DNA of 64,000 nt, taken from Opitutia bacterium (lineage in GTDB: Bacteria > Verrucomicrobiota > Verrucomicrobiia > Opitutales > Opitutaceae). A program made the position numbers and the translations under genes. The notes below the pieces were generated by a model. That model made no database searches and was not told the DNA's origin. It saw nothing but the letters and a program-made list of their open reading frames with translations. Below, one piece after another: positions 19,771 through 42,402 of this stretch. Location: positions 800,001 to 864,000 of the forward strand of contig CANJVR010000002.1 of the NCBI GenBank assembly GCA_947478395.1, given 5' to 3'. Position 1 is the first letter of the stretch. Each line of letters opens with the position of its first letter.

Positions 19771-19788
19771 CCGCCTAGCCGCTTGCAC

Positions 19789-19823
19789 CTACTCGCTACC
19801 CGCTACTCACTCCCCGCTGCTTC
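19789..19823. repeat. degenerate heptamer tandem array (CTACYCG)
   Basis: CTACTCG CTACCCG CTACTCA CTCCCCG CTGCTTC immediately upstream of ATG 19830. Confidence 0.6.
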
Positions 19824-22247: not shown

Positions 22248-25200
22248 ATGTCCGTCTCCGCACCTCGGCGCCTTAAGCTCACCGGTATTTGTCCCGCCGC
22301 GCGCGGGGCGGTACTCGCTGAGCTGACGCACGCGTATCCCGCGCCGGTGTGGCTGGTGGTGACCGACGAACTTAAGATCGCCGAGCAGCTCGCGGAAGAC
22401 GTCGCCTTTTTTCGCCACGCGGCGGTTGCCGCAGGAAATTCTTCCGCCCTCGCGGTGCACGTTTTTCCCGAGTCGATGCCCGACCACCGCGACATGCGCG
22501 AGGCTTTCGCCGCCTCGAGCGACCGGCTCGCGGTGCTTTCGAAATTGCGGGCGCTCCGCACGCCTTCCGGCACGCAGCTGCGCGCGGCCCACTCGCAGCT
22601 CCTGATTTTTTCGACGCCCGCCGCGCTGCTTCAACCCGTGCCGGCGCTCGAGGCGTTCGCGGCCCGCGAACTCACCCTCACGCGCGGCCAGCACCTGTCG
22701 TTCACCGGCCTTCTCGAACAACTGCGCGCTCTCGACTACGATTCCGAAGCCGTCTGCGAATCACCCGGCCATTACGCGATTCGCGGCGGTATCATCGATG
22801 TTTATCCCGTAACAGCGACGCAGCCCTACCGGCTCGATTTCTTCGGCGACGAGCTGGAGGAGATCCGGGCGTTCGATCCCGTTACGCAACGTTCCGGGGC
22901 AAAAATCGAGTCCATCGCCCTCGCGGCCTCCCCGCGGGTAAAACTCGATCCCGCCCAAACCGGTCTGGCCGACTATCTGCCCGCAGCGACGCACCTCGCG
23001 GTCGTCGAGCCGGTCGCGATCGAGGAATCTTTCAGCGCCCTCGCCCGCGAAGGTCGCGACGGACTGACCCCGCTCCTTCAGCAATGCTCCACGCACTTCG
23101 GCCTGTGCGATCTCGACGAAGCGAGCGCGCTTTTCGATCAGGCCGCCGATGAGCAAACGTGGGACACCGAGAGTCTCGCGCACCACCGGAGTTATCCCGA
23201 CAACGCGCTCGTCGCTCAGGAGCGGCTGCAAGTCGAGGCCGACGCCCGGCAACAGTTTCTCCATCAAATCGCGGCGTGGAAAAAATCGGGCTACGCCGTG
23301 GCCATCGTGGCGTCGAAGGAAGGCGAAGAGCAGCGCATCCGCGAAATTATCGCCGAGGACAGCGCACTGAAAAAACTGCAGCCGCTTTTTCTCCGCGGCG
23401 CACTCAACGAGGGCTTCCGCATCACGTATCGGGCCTCAACCCGAAACGCCAAACCCGAAACCCTGCAACTGGCCCCGAAGGGCGCCGGCCTTGTCGTCGT
23501 CACCGAAACCGAAATTTTCGGACGCCAGCGCGCACGCCGGGTCACCGGCACCGTCCGCGCCACGGCGCAACGCGCGCAAATCGACCAGTTGTTGGATTTC
23601 GCCGATCTCGTGGAGGGCGACTTCGTCGTTCACCTCCAGCACGGCATCGCGGTCTACCGCGGCCTCACCAAACTCGACACGGCGCAGGGCCTGCGCGAAG
23701 TCATCTCGCTTGAGTTCGACGATCAGGTGACGCTGCACGTCCCGCTGCAGGAATCCCATCTCATCAGCCGCTATGTCGGGCTCGGCAAAACGCGTCCACA
23801 GCTCGGCCGCATTGGCTCGGGTCGCTGGGAAAAGGCCCGGCAGGCGGCCGAACGCGCCACCATCGATCTCGCGGCCGAACTGCTCCGCATCCACGCCGAA
23901 CGCGAGGCCCAGCCCGGTCACGCCTTTCCGCCCGACACCACCTGGCAGAAAGAATTCGAGGCGTCGTTTCCGTTCACTGAAACGCGCGATCAATTGAAGG
24001 CCATCAACGACGCCAAGGCCGACATGGAACGCACCCGCCCGATGGACCGGCTCGTTTGCGGTGACGTGGGTTTCGGCAAAACGGAAGTAGCCATCCGCGC
24101 CGCGTTCAAAGCCGTCCAGGGAGGACGTCAGGTCGCGCTGCTCGTGCCGACAACGGTGCTCGCCCAGCAACATCTCAACACGTTCCGCGAGCGCATGGCC
24201 GGCTATCCGATCGCGGTCGAAATGGTCAGCCGATTCCGCTCGCGCGCGGAGCAGAAGAAAATCCTGGCGGCCGTCGCCGCCGGCCAGGTTGATATCCTCA
24301 TCGGCACACACCGGCTGCTCCAAGCCGATGTGAAGTTTCGCGATCTCGGCCTGGTCGTCTTCGACGAAGAGCAGCGTTTTGGCGTGAAGCACAAGGAGGT
24401 CTTCAAGCGCATGCGCGCAACCGTCGACGTCCTCTCGATGAGCGCCACGCCGATTCCGCGCACGTTGTACATGGCGCTCACCGGCGCGCGGGACCTGAGC
24501 GTGATCGAGACGGCTCCGACCAACCGTCATCCCATCCAAACCATCGTCAAAACCTACGACGAGCAGGTCGTCGTCGATGCGATCCGCCACGAGATCCGTC
24601 GCGGCGGCCAGGTGTTTTACCTGCACAATCGCGTGATGACGATCGAGCTGGTCGCCGCGCGTCTCCGTGAATTGCTGCCCGATCTCACGATCGGCGTGGG
24701 TCACGGGCAGATGGACGCCGACGAGCTGGAACGCGTGATGACCGACTTCGTCGCGGGAAAATTCCACGTGCTCATTTGCACCACGATCATCGAGAGCGGA
24801 CTCGATATCCCGAATTGTAACACGATCATCATCGAAGGCGCGGATCGTTTCGGACTCTCCCAACTCTACCAACTCCGCGGGCGCGTCGGTCGTTTCAAGC
24901 ATCAGGCGTACGCCTATCTGCTGCTGCACCGGCACACGAAACTCCTCGAAGTAGCGCGCCAGCGCCTGACGGCCATGCGGCAGCACAACCAGCTCGGCGC
25001 CGGTTTTCGCATCGCGATGCGCGACCTCGAATTGCGCGGAGCCGGCAATCTTCTCGGCTCCGAACAGAGCGGCCACATTATCGGCGTGGGCTTTGAACTC
25101 TATTGCCAGTTGCTCCGGCAATCCGTGGCCCGGCTGAAAGGCGACAAGACCGCCGCCGCGATCCGCGCGAGCGTAAAGCTCGATTTCGTTTTCGTCGGCG

Positions 25201-25676
25201 AAGGCGCGCCACGCGAGCGCGGCGACACGCGCAACCGGCACGGCGGCAGTTACACGGCCATCCGCGATGCCGAGGATGCGGCCAACGAAGGCCCGGGCGT
25301 TGCACCGATCCAAGCGCGCATCCCGCCCAACTACGTCAACGAAACCCGCCTGCGCATCGATTTCTACCGCAAACTGGCTCTCGCCGACACCGTGCCCGCG
25401 CTCAAACAGATCGAGTCCGATCTGCGCGACCGGTTCGGAAAATTCGCCGAGGAAGTACGCGCGCTGCTCATGCTGACGGAGATTCGGATCCGCGCGGAAC
25501 AAAAAGGCATTGTTTCCGTCGAAACCGAATCAAACCGCCTCAAGTGTCAGCGTAACAGCGGTCGCCACGACGATTGGGTGATGCACGGCACCCGGTTTCC
25601 ACGGTTGACCGCGACCGAGCCACTTCTACGGTTAAAAGAAGTAATCACGTTTTTGAACAATCTGCCGTCCCCATGA
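22248..25676 (+). CDS. mfd: transcription-repair coupling factor
   Basis: UvrB-like N-terminus, CarD/TRCF domain (GDFVVHLQHGI), CGDVGFGKTEVA, DEEQRFG, QLRGRVGR, RDLELRGAGNLLG. Confidence 0.97.
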   Translation: MSVSAPRRLKLTGICPAARGAVLAELTHAYPAPVWLVVTDELKIAEQLAEDVAFFRHAAVAAGNSSALAVHVFPESMPDHRDMREAFAASSDRLAVLSKLRALRTPSGTQLRAAHSQLLIFSTPAALLQPVPALEAFAARELTLTRGQHLSFTGLLEQLRALDYDSEAVCESPGHYAIRGGIIDVYPVTATQPYRLDFFGDELEEIRAFDPVTQRSGAKIESIALAASPRVKLDPAQTGLADYLPAATHLAVVEPVAIEESFSALAREGRDGLTPLLQQCSTHFGLCDLDEASALFDQAADEQTWDTESLAHHRSYPDNALVAQERLQVEADARQQFLHQIAAWKKSGYAVAIVASKEGEEQRIREIIAEDSALKKLQPLFLRGALNEGFRITYRASTRNAKPETLQLAPKGAGLVVVTETEIFGRQRARRVTGTVRATAQRAQIDQLLDFADLVEGDFVVHLQHGIAVYRGLTKLDTAQGLREVISLEFDDQVTLHVPLQESHLISRYVGLGKTRPQLGRIGSGRWEKARQAAERATIDLAAELLRIHAEREAQPGHAFPPDTTWQKEFEASFPFTETRDQLKAINDAKADMERTRPMDRLVCGDVGFGKTEVAIRAAFKAVQGGRQVALLVPTTVLAQQHLNTFRERMAGYPIAVEMVSRFRSRAEQKKILAAVAAGQVDILIGTHRLLQADVKFRDLGLVVFDEEQRFGVKHKEVFKRMRATVDVLSMSATPIPRTLYMALTGARDLSVIETAPTNRHPIQTIVKTYDEQVVVDAIRHEIRRGGQVFYLHNRVMTIELVAARLRELLPDLTIGVGHGQMDADELERVMTDFVAGKFHVLICTTIIESGLDIPNCNTIIIEGADRFGLSQLYQLRGRVGRFKHQAYAYLLLHRHTKLLEVARQRLTAMRQHNQLGAGFRIAMRDLELRGAGNLLGSEQSGHIIGVGFELYCQLLRQSVARLKGDKTAAAIRASVKLDFVFVGEGAPRERGDTRNRHGGSYTAIRDAEDAANEGPGVAPIQARIPPNYVNETRLRIDFYRKLALADTVPALKQIESDLRDRFGKFAEEVRALLMLTEIRIRAEQKGIVSVETESNRLKCQRNSGRHDDWVMHGTRFPRLTATEPLLRLKEVITFLNNLPSP
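23437..23471. repeat. heptamer tandem array (AAACCCG-type) inside mfd
   Basis: CAACCCG AAACGCC AAACCCG AAACCCT GCAACTG, the reverse complement of the GGGTTTY arrays at 26745 and 42338. Confidence 0.6.
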
Positions 25677-26727: not shown

Positions 26728-26760
26728 GCGTCGCGCGCGCGACGCGGTTCTGAGTTTTGG
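26728..26760 (+). terminator. possible intrinsic terminator after the surA-like gene
   Basis: Perfect palindrome GCGTCGCGCGCGCGACGC (26728-26745) followed by the T-rich heptamer array. Confidence 0.4.
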
Positions 26761-26807
26761 GTTTTGAGTTCTGGGTTTTGGGTTTTGGGTTTCTGACAAA
26801 CTCAACC
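26745..26807. repeat. heptamer tandem array (GGGTTTT/GAGTTYT) with short inverted tail
   Basis: CGGTTCT GAGTTTT GGGTTTT GAGTTCT GGGTTTT GGGTTTT GGGTTTC followed by AAACTCAACC. Confidence 0.9.
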
Positions 26808-39179: not shown

Positions 39180-40541
39180 CTATCTCACCGCCCGCGCATC
39201 AATAAATGCCCGGATCGCCGCCGGCGTCGCGGCGATGCGATGCTTCACGACCGGTCGTTTCTTCAACGCCTCCAGACTCGGGTCCGTCGGCTCGATGCCA
39301 ATGGCGGACTTGATCGTGTCGGGAAATTTCGCCGGGCTCGCCGTCGCCAGCACGATACTCACGCGTTCCGGATTGATTTGGGCAAAGCCGCACGCGGTGT
39401 GCGGATCGGCGATATAACCGTAATCGCGGTAAACGCGCTGGATGATTCCGGGGATGTCCGCATCCGTACAACGCGACGCGCTGAAAACCCCACGATCGAA
39501 ATTTTCAAAACGATAGGCGCCGGTCTTTTTAAACGTCGCCATCACCTCGCGCACGCGCGCCGGGTCGCGGCCGACCTGAAAATAAATGAAACGCTCGAAA
39601 TTCGACGCGACTTGAATGTCCATCGACGGCGCCAGACTCGGGAGCACGTCGCCGATGCGATACTCGCCGGTCGTGAACATCCGGTAGAGAATGTCGTTCT
39701 GGTTGGTTGCGACGCGAAAGCCGCGGATCGGCACGCCCATTTGCTGGAGCAGCCAGCCCGCGAGCACGTTCCCGAAATTGCCCGTCGGCACGACAAACTC
39801 CACGTCGCGCCGCTCAATCACCGGCACGCGCAGCCAAGCGTAAAGATAGTAAACGCACTGCGCCAACACGCGCGCGAGGTTGATGGAGTTGACCGCCGAT
39901 AGTCGGTGCCGCAGTCGAAATTCCTGATCGCCGAAAATTTCTTTCAGCGCGGTCTGCGCGTCGTCGAAGGTACCGTCGACCGCGAGCGCAAAGACGTTAT
40001 CTGCGCCGGTGCACGTCATCTGCCGTTCCTGCAGCGGCGAAACGCGACCGTCGGGATAAAGAATAAAGATCGCGGTGCCGGGTTTGCCGAGCAGTCCGTG
40101 AATCGCGGCCGCGCCCGTGTCGCCAGAGGTGGCGCCGAGGACGTTGATCGTCTCGCGACGCATGGCGCATTGATAGTCGTAAAGGTTGCCGAGCAGCTGG
40201 AGGGCGAAGTCTTTGAACGCGAGCGTGGGTCCGTGAAAGAGTTCGAGGACGTAGAGATTCTGCGCGAGCGGTTTCAGCGGGGCGATCGCCGGATCGCGGA
40301 ACGCGGTGTAGGATTTCGCGATAATCGCGCGGAGGGTTTCCGGCGGGATGTCGGTCGCGAAGACGCGGAGAAACTCGAAGCACAGCTCGGCGTACCCGAG
40401 TTTTTCAAAGCGCGCGAGTTGACTGCTAAAATCGGGCAGCGTCTCCGGCAGAAACAATCCGCCGTCCGGCGCCAGGCCAGTGGCCACGGCATCGGAGAAG
40501 CCAAGCGGCGGAGTTTGGCCGCGGGTGGAAAGGAAGCGCAT
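39180..40541 (-). CDS. thrC: threonine synthase
   Basis: STRG, GLAPDGGLF, ELFHGPTLAFKD (PLP lysine), ATSGDTG, VPTGNFGN. Confidence 0.96.
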   Translation of the reverse strand: MRFLSTRGQTPPLGFSDAVATGLAPDGGLFLPETLPDFSSQLARFEKLGYAELCFEFLRVFATDIPPETLRAIIAKSYTAFRDPAIAPLKPLAQNLYVLELFHGPTLAFKDFALQLLGNLYDYQCAMRRETINVLGATSGDTGAAAIHGLLGKPGTAIFILYPDGRVSPLQERQMTCTGADNVFALAVDGTFDDAQTALKEIFGDQEFRLRHRLSAVNSINLARVLAQCVYYLYAWLRVPVIERRDVEFVVPTGNFGNVLAGWLLQQMGVPIRGFRVATNQNDILYRMFTTGEYRIGDVLPSLAPSMDIQVASNFERFIYFQVGRDPARVREVMATFKKTGAYRFENFDRGVFSASRCTDADIPGIIQRVYRDYGYIADPHTACGFAQINPERVSIVLATASPAKFPDTIKSAIGIEPTDPSLEALKKRPVVKHRIAATPAAIRAFIDARAVR

Positions 40542-40551
40542 GTGGGAAAGA

Positions 40552-40590
40552 AGAGAAGCCGGAGGCCAGATGACAGCGGCCAGAATCAGA
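40552..40590. repeat. heptamer array, left arm of the inverted pair flanking the four-helix-bundle gene
   Basis: AG AGAAGCC GGAGGCC AGATGAC AGCGGCC AGAATCA GA. Confidence 0.85.
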
Positions 40591-41086
40591 TTGGACGGCG
40601 CGCGTCTCGCAGGAGAAATGGCGTCGGGTTTTGCATAATACTGCCGAGCATCCGGCCGATTTCCCTCATCTGTTCGTGAAGGGAATCGAAGTCAGCCGTC
40701 GACAAATAGCCGTGGTGGCTGGCGAACATGAGCCAATTTTCCGATTCCAAGAGTTCAGTGTCGCTGTCCGAAAGTTTGCTGACGAAGTGAGCTTCGTATC
40801 GGCGTTTTCCCCAAGCTTCACATATGTTGGCGCTCACCGATCGCGACGAACGCCTAACCTGATCGATGAGCGCGAATTTTTCCTCACGCGGCCAGCTTCG
40901 CGAAAATTCAAAGACACGCAGACCGAGATCAAAAGCTTTCTGCCAGACGATCAGATCCGTGAAATGCCGAATCGGGCCAGCCCCACGTCCACCACTTGGA
41001 CCCTCGACCACGATCGCGGGTCGCCGACCAGTGGTATCCGGCCTTTGGCTTCCGGCCGCTGACATCTGGCTTCTGGCCTCTGGCAT
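40586..41086 (-). CDS. four-helix-bundle protein (23S rRNA IVP/Avd-like family); start uncertain (41086, 41065 or 41011)
   Basis: FTDLIVWQKA, WPREEKFALIDQVRRSSRSVSANICEAWGKRRYEAHFVSKLSDSDTELLESENWL family motifs. Confidence 0.88.
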   Translation of the reverse strand: MPEARSQMSAAGSQRPDTTGRRPAIVVEGPSGGRGAGPIRHFTDLIVWQKAFDLGLRVFEFSRSWPREEKFALIDQVRRSSRSVSANICEAWGKRRYEAHFVSKLSDSDTELLESENWLMFASHHGYLSTADFDSLHEQMREIGRMLGSIMQNPTPFLLRDARRPI

Positions 41087-41097
41087 CTGGCTTCTCT
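41033..41097. repeat. heptamer array (9 units), right arm, inverted relative to 40552-40590
   Basis: GGTATCC GGCCTTT GGCTTCC GGCCGCT GACATCT GGCTTCT GGCCTCT GGCATCT GGCTTCT CT. Confidence 0.9.
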
Positions 41098-41101
41098 CCC
41101 C

Positions 41102-42316
41102 TCAAAGCTGATCCAGGTGAAACGCCTTGTGCGCGACGCGCGCGGCTTCGTCGGCTTTATCCTTGGCGATCACAACGGAGATTTTGATTTCCGAGGTGCT
41201 GATCAGTTCGAGGTTGATGTCGGCGCCCGCGAGCGCGGTGAAGAGCGTTGAAGCGACCCCGCTGTGCGTGCGCATGCCTACGCCGACGACGGAGAGCTTG
41301 GCGATCTTGTCGTCGAGCGTGATGCTGCCGCCGATTTCCTTGAGGACCGGCGCCAGCGCTTTCTCGGCTTTGAGCGTTTCCGTCTGCGGCACGGTGAAGG
41401 TCAGCGTGGCGACGCCGCCCTGACCGGCGTTCTGGACGATCATGTCGACATTGATGTTCGCATCCGCGAGAGCACGAAACACCTTGGCGGCGGTGCCGGG
41501 GCGATCGGCGATATTGCTGACGACGACCTTGGCTTGGTCCTTGTCGACGGCGACGCCACGGACGACGACTTTTTCCATATAGGCGACTTCTTGTTTCACA
41601 ATGGTTCCTGGGTTGTTGTTGAAAGAGGAGCGGACTTCGAAAATCACGTTGTACTTGGAGGCAAACTCGACCGAGCGGGTCTGCATGACTTTCGAGCCGA
41701 GAGACGCGAGTTCGAGCATCTCGTCGTAGCTGATTTCCTGGAGTTTCCGGGCGTCTTTAACGACCCGGGGATCGGCGGTGTAAACGCCATCAACATCGGT
41801 GTAGATCTCGCACTTGTCGGCCTTCACCGCCGCAGCCAGGGCAATGGCCGTAAGATCCGACCCGCCACGGCCGAGCGTGGTAATGTGGCCCTCCTCGTTA
41901 ATCCCTTGAAATCCCGCGACGATGATGACCTTACCGGCGCTGAGGTCGGCCTCGATGGGACGGGCGTCGATCGTTTTGATCTTCGCCTTGGTGTGGACCT
42001 TGTCCGTGAAGATGCCGGCCTGCGCTCCAGTGTAGCTCACGGCGCCGACGCCGATGGCCTCAAGCGCCATGGCGGTGAGGGCAATCGTCTCTTGTTCGCC
42101 GATCGAGAGCAGCTGATCCATCTCGCGCTCGGGCGGATTCGGATGAATCGCTTTGGCGCGAGCGATGAGCTCGTTGGTCACGCCCGAACGGGCAGAGACG
42201 ACGACGACGAGTTCGTTGCCTTCGTCGCGAATCGCCTTGATGCGGTTCGCGACATTTTTGATACGCTCGACGTCACCGACCGAGGTGCCGCCATATTTTT
42301 GAACAATGCGAGCCAT
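41102..42316 (-). CDS. lysC: aspartate kinase (monofunctional, two ACT domains)
   Basis: VQKYGGTSV, TLGRGGSD, YTDVDGVYTADPR, ISTSEIKIS. Confidence 0.96.
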   Translation of the reverse strand: MARIVQKYGGTSVGDVERIKNVANRIKAIRDEGNELVVVVSARSGVTNELIARAKAIHPNPPEREMDQLLSIGEQETIALTAMALEAIGVGAVSYTGAQAGIFTDKVHTKAKIKTIDARPIEADLSAGKVIIVAGFQGINEEGHITTLGRGGSDLTAIALAAAVKADKCEIYTDVDGVYTADPRVVKDARKLQEISYDEMLELASLGSKVMQTRSVEFASKYNVIFEVRSSFNNNPGTIVKQEVAYMEKVVVRGVAVDKDQAKVVVSNIADRPGTAAKVFRALADANINVDMIVQNAGQGGVATLTFTVPQTETLKAEKALAPVLKEIGGSITLDDKIAKLSVVGVGMRTHSGVASTLFTALAGADINLELISTSEIKISVVIAKDKADEAARVAHKAFHLDQL

Positions 42317-42333
42317 GGATTGAAGCGGAAGAA

Positions 42334-42402
42334 AAACGGGTTTTGAGTTTAGCGTTTTGGGTTTTGAGTTCTCCAGATCAGAAGAAGTTTCAAACCCCGT
42401 TT
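42334..42402. repeat. heptamer array (GGGTTTT/GAGTTYW) with inverted closing arm, between hom and lysC
   Basis: GGGTTTT GAGTTTA GCGTTTT GGGTTTT GAGTTCT; AAACGGGTTTTGA pairs 12/13 with TCAAACCCCGTTT. Confidence 0.85.

Follow-up and report, generated by a model that had tools for sequence, protein, structure and literature searches.

Open reading frames (ORFs) of the S23p/PF05635 protein family are known from intervening sequences (IVS) of 23S rRNA, as in helix 45 of Coxiella burnetii and in Leptospira. The Coxiella IVS encodes a PF05635-type protein and begins, at the 5′ end, with GACAGAT heptamers, the first of which is the site of RNase III cleavage (excerpt of PMC4990558). The family is described as uncharacterised in a preprint on CPR rRNA insertions, the available portion of which does not contain the word "repeat" (10.1101/2024.02.27.582315). 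The Avd protein of DGRs is a related four-helix bundle that binds RNA (excerpt of PMC6182149). In a DGR complex, a single RNA element is touched by all five Avd protomers, and flipped bases sit in the crevices between them (excerpt of 10.1101/2023.10.23.563531).

Short dispersed repeats are the second point of comparison. Rickettsia palindromic elements are small repeats that lie between genes and, in frame, inside genes for conserved proteins, and the Nostoc STRR and trnL P6b repeats are reportedly bacterial heptamer repeats of a comparable kind. In Beggiatoaceae, TAACTGA forms runs of 2–6 copies before start codons (excerpt of PMC4679880). DNA uptake sequences (DUS), which originate through recombination, occupy permissive sites of the core genome and occur as closely spaced inverted pairs (excerpt of PMC2397512).

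The window, the whole 64,000-nucleotide stretch of Opitutia DNA analyzed here, contains a gene of the PF05635/TIGR02436 family between two biosynthetic genes, all on the minus strand. Upstream is the host gene lysC, encoding aspartokinase (41102..42316), and downstream is the host gene thrC, encoding threonine synthase (39180..40541); Pfam domains (AA_kinase and ACT; Thr_synth_N and PALP) bear out both names given in an earlier sequence-only reading. The four-helix-bundle gene (40586..41086) encodes 166 amino acids from its first ATG. Its 5′ arm (41034..41097, minus strand), about nine purine-rich RGCCAGA-type units, spans the possible start codons (ATG 41086 or 41065), provides GAGG motifs, and contains the first ~17 codons. 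The 3′ arm (40552..40590, minus strand), made of some five units complementary to these (on the mRNA, TCTGGCY), begins at the gene's stop codon and ends 10 nt before the thrC ATG. The terminal 9-bp inverted repeat is exact, with AGAGAAGCC at 40552–40560 and GGCTTCTCT at 41089–41097, and the stem spacing described earlier is accurate, with 4 nt separating the stem from the lysC stop (41102–41104) and 10 nt separating it from the thrC ATG (40539–40541). Nuclease and transposase domains are absent from the Pfam results, in agreement with the description of a gene-plus-arrays unit lacking a transposase.

The encoded protein belongs clearly to the family, matching PF05635 with an E value of 2e-30 (score 105.6, cut-off 33.8) and TIGR02436 with a score of 99.7 (cut-off 24). 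Against the DGR Avd model NF033474 it scores 41.7, below the cut-off of 80. Its predicted structure (pLDDT 92.5) resembles 2GSC (Xcc0516; Z 19.3, rmsd 1.3 over 115 residues), 2RLD (BT_0352; Z 17.2), and Avd (Z 14.4–14.8). Family membership and fold match together uphold the proposed kinship with ORF-bearing 23S IVS and with Avd. Both solved homologs, 2GSC and 2RLD, contain five chains, by analogy with which the window protein is probably a homopentamer. The dN/dS of the gene is ~0.1 in close pairs (median 0.11, n = 7), with 0.06–0.12 in four pairs, 0 in one, and 0.32–0.34 in two. Such purifying selection argues that the gene is translated.

The sequence-only reading had proposed that the arms fold the mRNA into a stem that loops out the gene and brings lysC and thrC together. 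The match between 40554–40585 and 41050–41081 is as described, with 27 Watson–Crick pairs among 32; the other five are 2 G·U, 2 A·C, and one further mismatch. The count of 29/32 in mRNA is right, but it is not specific to that strand, as the 2 A·C pairs would be G·U on the opposite strand. When 3000 32-mers were drawn at random from contig C2, none matched inverted sequence within 700 nt at 27/32 (best 26), and the arms pair in six registers 7 nt apart, with 19–27 of 33 in each. In silico, the predicted fold of the 591-nt mRNA has an energy of −242.6 kcal/mol (z −3.55; 0/100 shuffles as low), and a 3′-arm base pairs with the 5′ arm with a mean probability of 0.74. The order of variant units shared by the two arms does not exceed that in unit-order shuffles (p 0.28).

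The design recurs throughout the family. Inverted heptamer arrays flank all four PF05635 matches of the window's genome (G000), with a different unit at each, as the looping proposal had anticipated for paralogs. The family has 568 matches in 121 Opitutaceae genomes; the locus set combined the best-scoring 130 of these with 160 loci from two clade-seeded searches and is biased towards the clade of the window protein. Of 306 matches, 249 remained once those with incomplete cores, insufficient flanks, or duplicate proteins had been removed. Period-7 arrays flank both sides in 179 of the 249 homologs compared with 0 of 221 windows displaced 500 nt outwards, and no other period from 5 to 11 rises above 19 loci on either side. 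A total of 234 loci represent 83 neighbourhoods, and within Opitutaceae the large neighbourhoods are each mostly of one unit class. Copies located in rRNA were sought as a positive control; the loci examined carried no conserved rRNA motif, and no rRNA operon was evident in G000.

Selection for pairing leaves marks that can be sought across these loci. Summed over 221 loci, the mRNA-strand duplexes hold 579 A·C pairs against 452 G·U; by locus, A·C is the more frequent in 106, G·U in 66, and 49 are ties. Best arm-to-arm identity is 0.791 compared with 0.783 after unit-order shuffling (171 loci with enough distinct units), 93 of the 171 loci lie above the shuffle mean, and 11 reach p < 0.05, which is about the chance level. 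The two arms behave like independent samples of one consensus. By these indirect tests, the A·C excess and the unshared unit order speak against selection for an mRNA stem, and the self-looping mRNA is weakly supported. The stem can form nonetheless, and RNase III may cut it by analogy with the Coxiella IVS.

Arm length and unit identity are constrained instead. Four to five consecutive cores is the mode (139/225 5′ arms and 131/225 3′ arms), and arm length climbs sharply at 29–30 nt and peaks at 30–35 nt, with arms shorter than 28 nt numbering 14 and 18 of 222. Planted arms of 14–25 nt were recovered in 58–92 of 120 trials and those of 32 nt in 95/120, which shows that shorter arms would have been detected. 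The 3′ arms are kept slightly better than the 5′ arms (133/222). The unit of a locus is close to that of the nearest protein (distance 1.23 versus 2.61 at random), and unit class persists although the synonymous sites of the gene are saturated. It also persists across phyla, as the window clade keeps RRYCAGA-like units in 45 neighbourhoods. In a tree-aware test, no residue passed as changing with the unit (best family-wise p 0.09–0.11), with hints below threshold in the helix 2–3 loop and at the N-terminus. Because the alignment lost one loop column and registers are uncertain, this null does not refute a residue code. Within the lysC-thrC clade, unit position 3 shifts in both arms without obvious change in the protein.

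Arrays also occur far from the gene. At the chosen threshold, G000 holds 90 arrays (5 doubtful ones were dropped later), most of the class that flanks the paralog on contig C6. Counted as overlapping pattern matches rather than sites in 121 Opitutaceae genomes, where kin are not independent and "without" means not found with that query, TTYYGRG arrays reach at least 25 matches in 8/13 genomes with the cognate gene versus 0/108 without it, and at least 10 matches in 10/13 versus 4/108. On the same terms, CRGANGH arrays reach at least 50 matches in 9/25 genomes with the window gene's clade versus 0/96 without, and at least 20 in 13/25 versus 9/96. Comparisons within genera give 7 up, 0 down, and 1 tie for TTYYGRG, and 10 up, 3 down, and 1 tie for CRGANGH (p 0.09). 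Cross controls were null in the 121 genomes.

The association has exceptions on both sides. Among array-bearing genomes that were spot-checked, the cognate gene is present in G007 and G116 and was not found in G015, G022, and G023; the AGTAGCG arrays of G000 have no cognate gene among its four PF05635 matches. Genes also occur without expansion, as the window's own unit has 4 matches in G000 and 0 in G018 and G090, and match numbers range from 0 to 646 inside one genus. Five single-gene genomes (G024, G048, G093, G099, and G123) have 232–646 matches of one unit. A strong partner was found for few G000 arrays, giving 14 pairs among 90 at the chosen threshold. The loops of these 14 pairs show no sequence match to one another, which rules out MITE-type copying. 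A ComEC-family gene is present in the genome, as it is in 10/14 control genomes.

The positions of the arrays, judged against gene calls from a simple in-house caller, fall into gaps and protein loops. Four lie elsewhere in the window. A gene-less array at 42338..42370 (minus strand), of the TTTTGAG class cognate to the paralog G000:C6:13568 and of the 3′-arm type on the mRNA, lies 21 nt before the lysC start. An AGTAGCG-class array of the 3′-arm type (19775..19821, plus strand) lies 8 nt before a predicted start codon, a TTTTGAG-class array of the 5′-arm type (26746..26792, plus strand) lies 23 nt after a predicted stop codon, and another TTTTGAG-class array (23434..23465, plus strand) is in frame in a hydrophilic loop of mfd (22248–25676). 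Of the gaps that bear arrays, 36/39 are between co-oriented genes and 1 is divergent (expected share 0.18, p 0.005). The arm order is fixed, and unpaired arrays are almost all of the 3′-arm type on the mRNA. Intergenic 3′-arm arrays are closer to the downstream start in 24/27 cases, and 5′-arm arrays are closer to the upstream stop in 16/17. The sole array in a divergent gap is a near-perfect six-copy GGTGATT run (G000:C2:756600–756646), for which a cognate gene was not found.

Arrays in frame number 33 in G000 (one doubtful). In a scan of 17 host proteins, made without a background control, 13 were nameable and 9 of these are nucleic-acid enzymes: UvrA, DnaE, MutS, Mfd, RecD2, HrpA, Snf2- and Rad3-type helicases, and RsmB. 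When six genes were compared with up to five relatives each, the array corresponded to extra residues in purL, recD2, dnaE, and gcvP, and the comparisons of mfd and metH gave no clear insertion. The same loops carry other units in other genomes. One purL loop has arrays of near-equal length in G015 and G000, with units TCTCAAA and TCTCAAC; one run looks like a rewritten version of the other. Several arrays can share a protein: a 2008-aa double UvrA (G000:C7:84706–90732) has six in-frame heptamer arrays, two as inverted pairs, and dnaE (C8:37804–41538) and hrpA (C2:368209–372570) have three each. In-gene arrays favour one strand (33 versus 5). Read on the opposite strand, they would encode a hydrophobic peptide (mean hydropathy +0.83 versus −1.95) with more stops (73 versus 18 of 186 frames). 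In-gene orientation is therefore uninformative, and the bias was discarded as proof of RNA binding.

The lysC-thrC junction records a long residence. Adjacent lysC and thrC are found in 28/30 thrC loci, and these 28 junctions hold the cassette in 3 (G000, G024, and G018), a gene-less heptamer pair in 3 (two of another unit), another ORF-sized insert in 4, a gap of at most 21 nt in 3, and other spacers in 15. The empty alleles are too diverged for comparison of target-site duplications or insertion motifs. Of the 41 closest loci (at least 62.9% identity, duplicates counted), 38 adjoin lysC and/or thrC. All 41 form a single branch (SH-aLRT 98, quick tree), and a 12-row sub-branch of this clade now occupies at least 4 other neighbourhoods. 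For 29 loci, the gene tree and the lysC+thrC tree have five groups in common and conflict strongly in two places; the lysC and thrC trees conflict with each other as well. AU tests reject the host tree for the four-helix gene and do not discriminate, because the lysC tree is also rejected for thrC. The view of a recently inserted cassette is not supported. Vertical conservation at this site, which the sequence-only reading had weighed against its own proposal, is borne out in part, in that the tree largely follows the host, and fails in part, with losses and swaps. The gene appears from these comparisons to be an old translated resident that is often lost and sometimes swapped.

Sequencing runs contain alternative alleles of the region. 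One contig of DNA run X17 matches lysC over 531 nt with a single difference, then skips 557 nt and rejoins at the base before the thrC start, which implies ~83 other letters (644 − 531 − 30); this cassette-free allele is one contig with a 30-letter side, and the same run also holds contigs with the cassette. Contigs of RNA runs X18 and X19 depart from the reference at the two ends of the X17 allele, and none covers the cassette. The X17 contig hints at allele replacement within the species, not splicing. Over window positions 41540–42400, run X16 (record 8) has a contig with 47 differences across the 5′ part of lysC, alongside near-identical contigs elsewhere, which reads as a diverged allele or a sister strain in this one sample. 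GTAG-ended, REP-like palindromes fill the lysC-thrC junction in several genomes of the window's genus (L006, L011–L016), and one of them also occurs in G000 on C2 near 574170. Four relatives (L006, L009, L010, and L031) have unrelated genes of 570–780 nt there, which marks the junction as an insertion hot spot.

We propose that the gene product is a homopentameric ring that would bind a run of five heptamers on single-stranded nucleic acid, one unit per subunit, with each protein subfamily reading its own unit. A five-heptamer ring is the most economical account of the period, the arm length, the pairing of unit with protein, and the dependence in trans. The two arms would be the protein's own binding sites, one per DNA strand, and one site per strand would yield inverted arms without selected pairing. 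Acting in trans on run-bearing DNA, the protein may favour that DNA in allele exchange by homologous recombination, for example by protecting it or aiding its pairing as a single-stranded donor. Runs would then accumulate where they are tolerated, at operon junctions and in loops of large core proteins, and the site-flanked gene would keep itself at the junction or be swapped as an allele. Biased allele exchange fits targets without a common function and also fits allele replacement.

This reading, a pentameric binder whose sites spread by biased recombination in the manner of DNA uptake sequences, is assigned a probability of about 0.4. Its parts differ in strength. Direct binding of the ring to five heptamers is probable. 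A single strand, of DNA rather than RNA, is the presumed target, and drive by recombination has, overall, somewhat less than an even chance. A side remark of the sequence-only reading, that the protein may bind or propagate arrays, is favoured by the unit-protein pairing, the five-unit length, and the co-occurrence of gene and arrays. The tie of arrays to transcription, seen in gap orientation and in the prevalence of the 3′-arm type, counts against a DNA-level drive, as it is equally explained by a role in RNA.

The main rival is such a role, though it is unlikely. A TRAP-like, mRNA-binding pentamer would bind 3′-arm-type runs before start codons and in coding loops, changing translation or stability. 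The arrays would be a selected regulon and the 5′ arm an antisense switch for self-regulation. The positions of intergenic arrays next to downstream starts and upstream stops, the avoidance of divergent gaps (1/39), and the slightly better keeping of 3′ arms are what such a protein predicts. Its homolog Avd binds RNA, and TAACTGA runs before start codons have been proposed as sites of an unknown regulator (excerpt of PMC4679880). The putative targets, however, lack a common function and vary between genomes of one genus, different units occupy the same protein loops, tolerance explains the in-gene strand bias, and an antisense switch finds no G·U excess.

An mRNA counterpart of the 23S IVS is more improbable. 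Here the arms would pair, RNase III would cut or the ribosome would be carried across, and the insert would be harmless. The stem folds in silico, the arm order is fixed, and the Coxiella IVS combines heptamers, the same family, and an RNase III cut (excerpt of PMC4990558). Against this stand the excess of A·C over G·U on the mRNA strand, the unshared unit order, the lack of a strong partner for most G000 arrays, and the purifying selection on the gene, which is hence translated. RNase III cutting without ligation would also split the operon mRNA, not rejoin it. Cleavage by RNase III may be a side effect in the arms.

Writing in the manner of Avd is a poor candidate. A ring that recruits a reverse transcriptase or another polymerase to array RNA, from which new runs are copied into DNA, would accord with the Avd fold, with the link of arrays to transcribed strands, and with runs that arise as fresh ~30-nt insertions. 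The protein falls below the Avd model cut-off, however, no template repeat was seen, and PF00078 matches a single G000 protein, a solitary enzyme of 527 aa encoded on contig C4, far from the cassettes. This reverse-transcriptase-like gene (G000:C4:155216–156799, minus strand) lies beside a methylase/restriction-like ORF in what looks like a defence locus. Equally improbable is the absence of any recognition, with arrays made by slippage, homogenised by conversion, and merely accompanying the gene: no residue code passed and arrays persist where no gene was found, but the five-unit floor, the unit class retained beyond synonymous saturation, and unit-specific expansions distant from the gene only where the gene is present, with null cross controls, speak against it.

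A wider claim may be ventured, tentatively and with less assurance than for the locus itself. The many PF05635 proteins would be pentamers that bind single strands in a sequence-specific way. Each would recognise a five-heptamer run of its own, would drive such runs and its own gene without a transposase or nuclease, and would place 10-residue peptides in core enzymes. The 23S IVS would be a special case, and the repeats of Beggiatoaceae, Xanthomonas, and cyanobacteria would be footprints of such proteins. The comparison joins two orphans, a common protein family that has structures without a function and heptamer repeats of several phyla that have no known binder, and it offers a candidate binder for these unexplained repeats. 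In a literature search with limited coverage of subscription journals, no paper linked the PF05635 family to dispersed heptamer arrays. The unit-protein pairing and the five-unit length permit a cheap direct binding test. Were the drive true, sequence spread and peptide insertion into essential proteins would proceed without a transposase, and the family would offer a ready-made collection of small rings that each recognise a different 7-letter unit.

Compared with known systems, the locus is nearest to the ORF-bearing 23S IVS, with which it has the protein family in common. Both end in inverted repeats that can pair as a stem, and both are patchily present, and the tandem GACAGAT heptamers of Coxiella are close to the window's unit (excerpt of PMC4990558). 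Unlike those IVS, the cassette lies between the protein genes lysC and thrC rather than in 16S or 23S rRNA, its pairing shows no sign of selection, its gene is under purifying selection, and its arrays occur genome-wide and inside proteins. It resembles DGR Avd in the four-helix bundle and in the pentamer of solved homologs; Avd binds nucleic acid through a single kind of pocket that recurs in several protomers (excerpt of 10.1101/2023.10.23.563531). Unlike Avd, the protein is below the model cut-off, and a reverse transcriptase, template, and variable region were not found near the gene.

The arrays, in turn, resemble the Beggiatoaceae TAACTGA and Xanthomonas GGGAATC repeats in their period of 7, short runs, and inverted pairs, and in those repeats one strand follows stop codons and the other precedes start codons (excerpts of PMC4679880 and PMC4692102). 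The accessible parts of these papers name no binder, and "four-helix", "S23", and "intervening" are absent from that of PMC4679880. With the DNA uptake sequences of Neisseria (DUS) and Pasteurellaceae (USS), the arrays share the accumulation of a short cognate motif, probably by a like way of working; as with DUS, arrays in the window's genome occupy permissive core sites and form inverted pairs. Unlike DUS and USS, the motif is a five-unit tandem run rather than one 9–12-mer, there are several "dialects" per genome, and a small cytoplasmic protein, whose gene has its own sites on either side, is the putative reader. Rickettsia palindromic elements, REP/RAYT, and MITEs are likewise small repeats, both intergenic and in frame. 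Unlike them, the copies here have no shared loop or body, and the cassette has no nuclease or transposase domain. The cassette shares its design with ORF-bearing IVS, and it is not an rRNA IVS, a DGR part, or a MITE.
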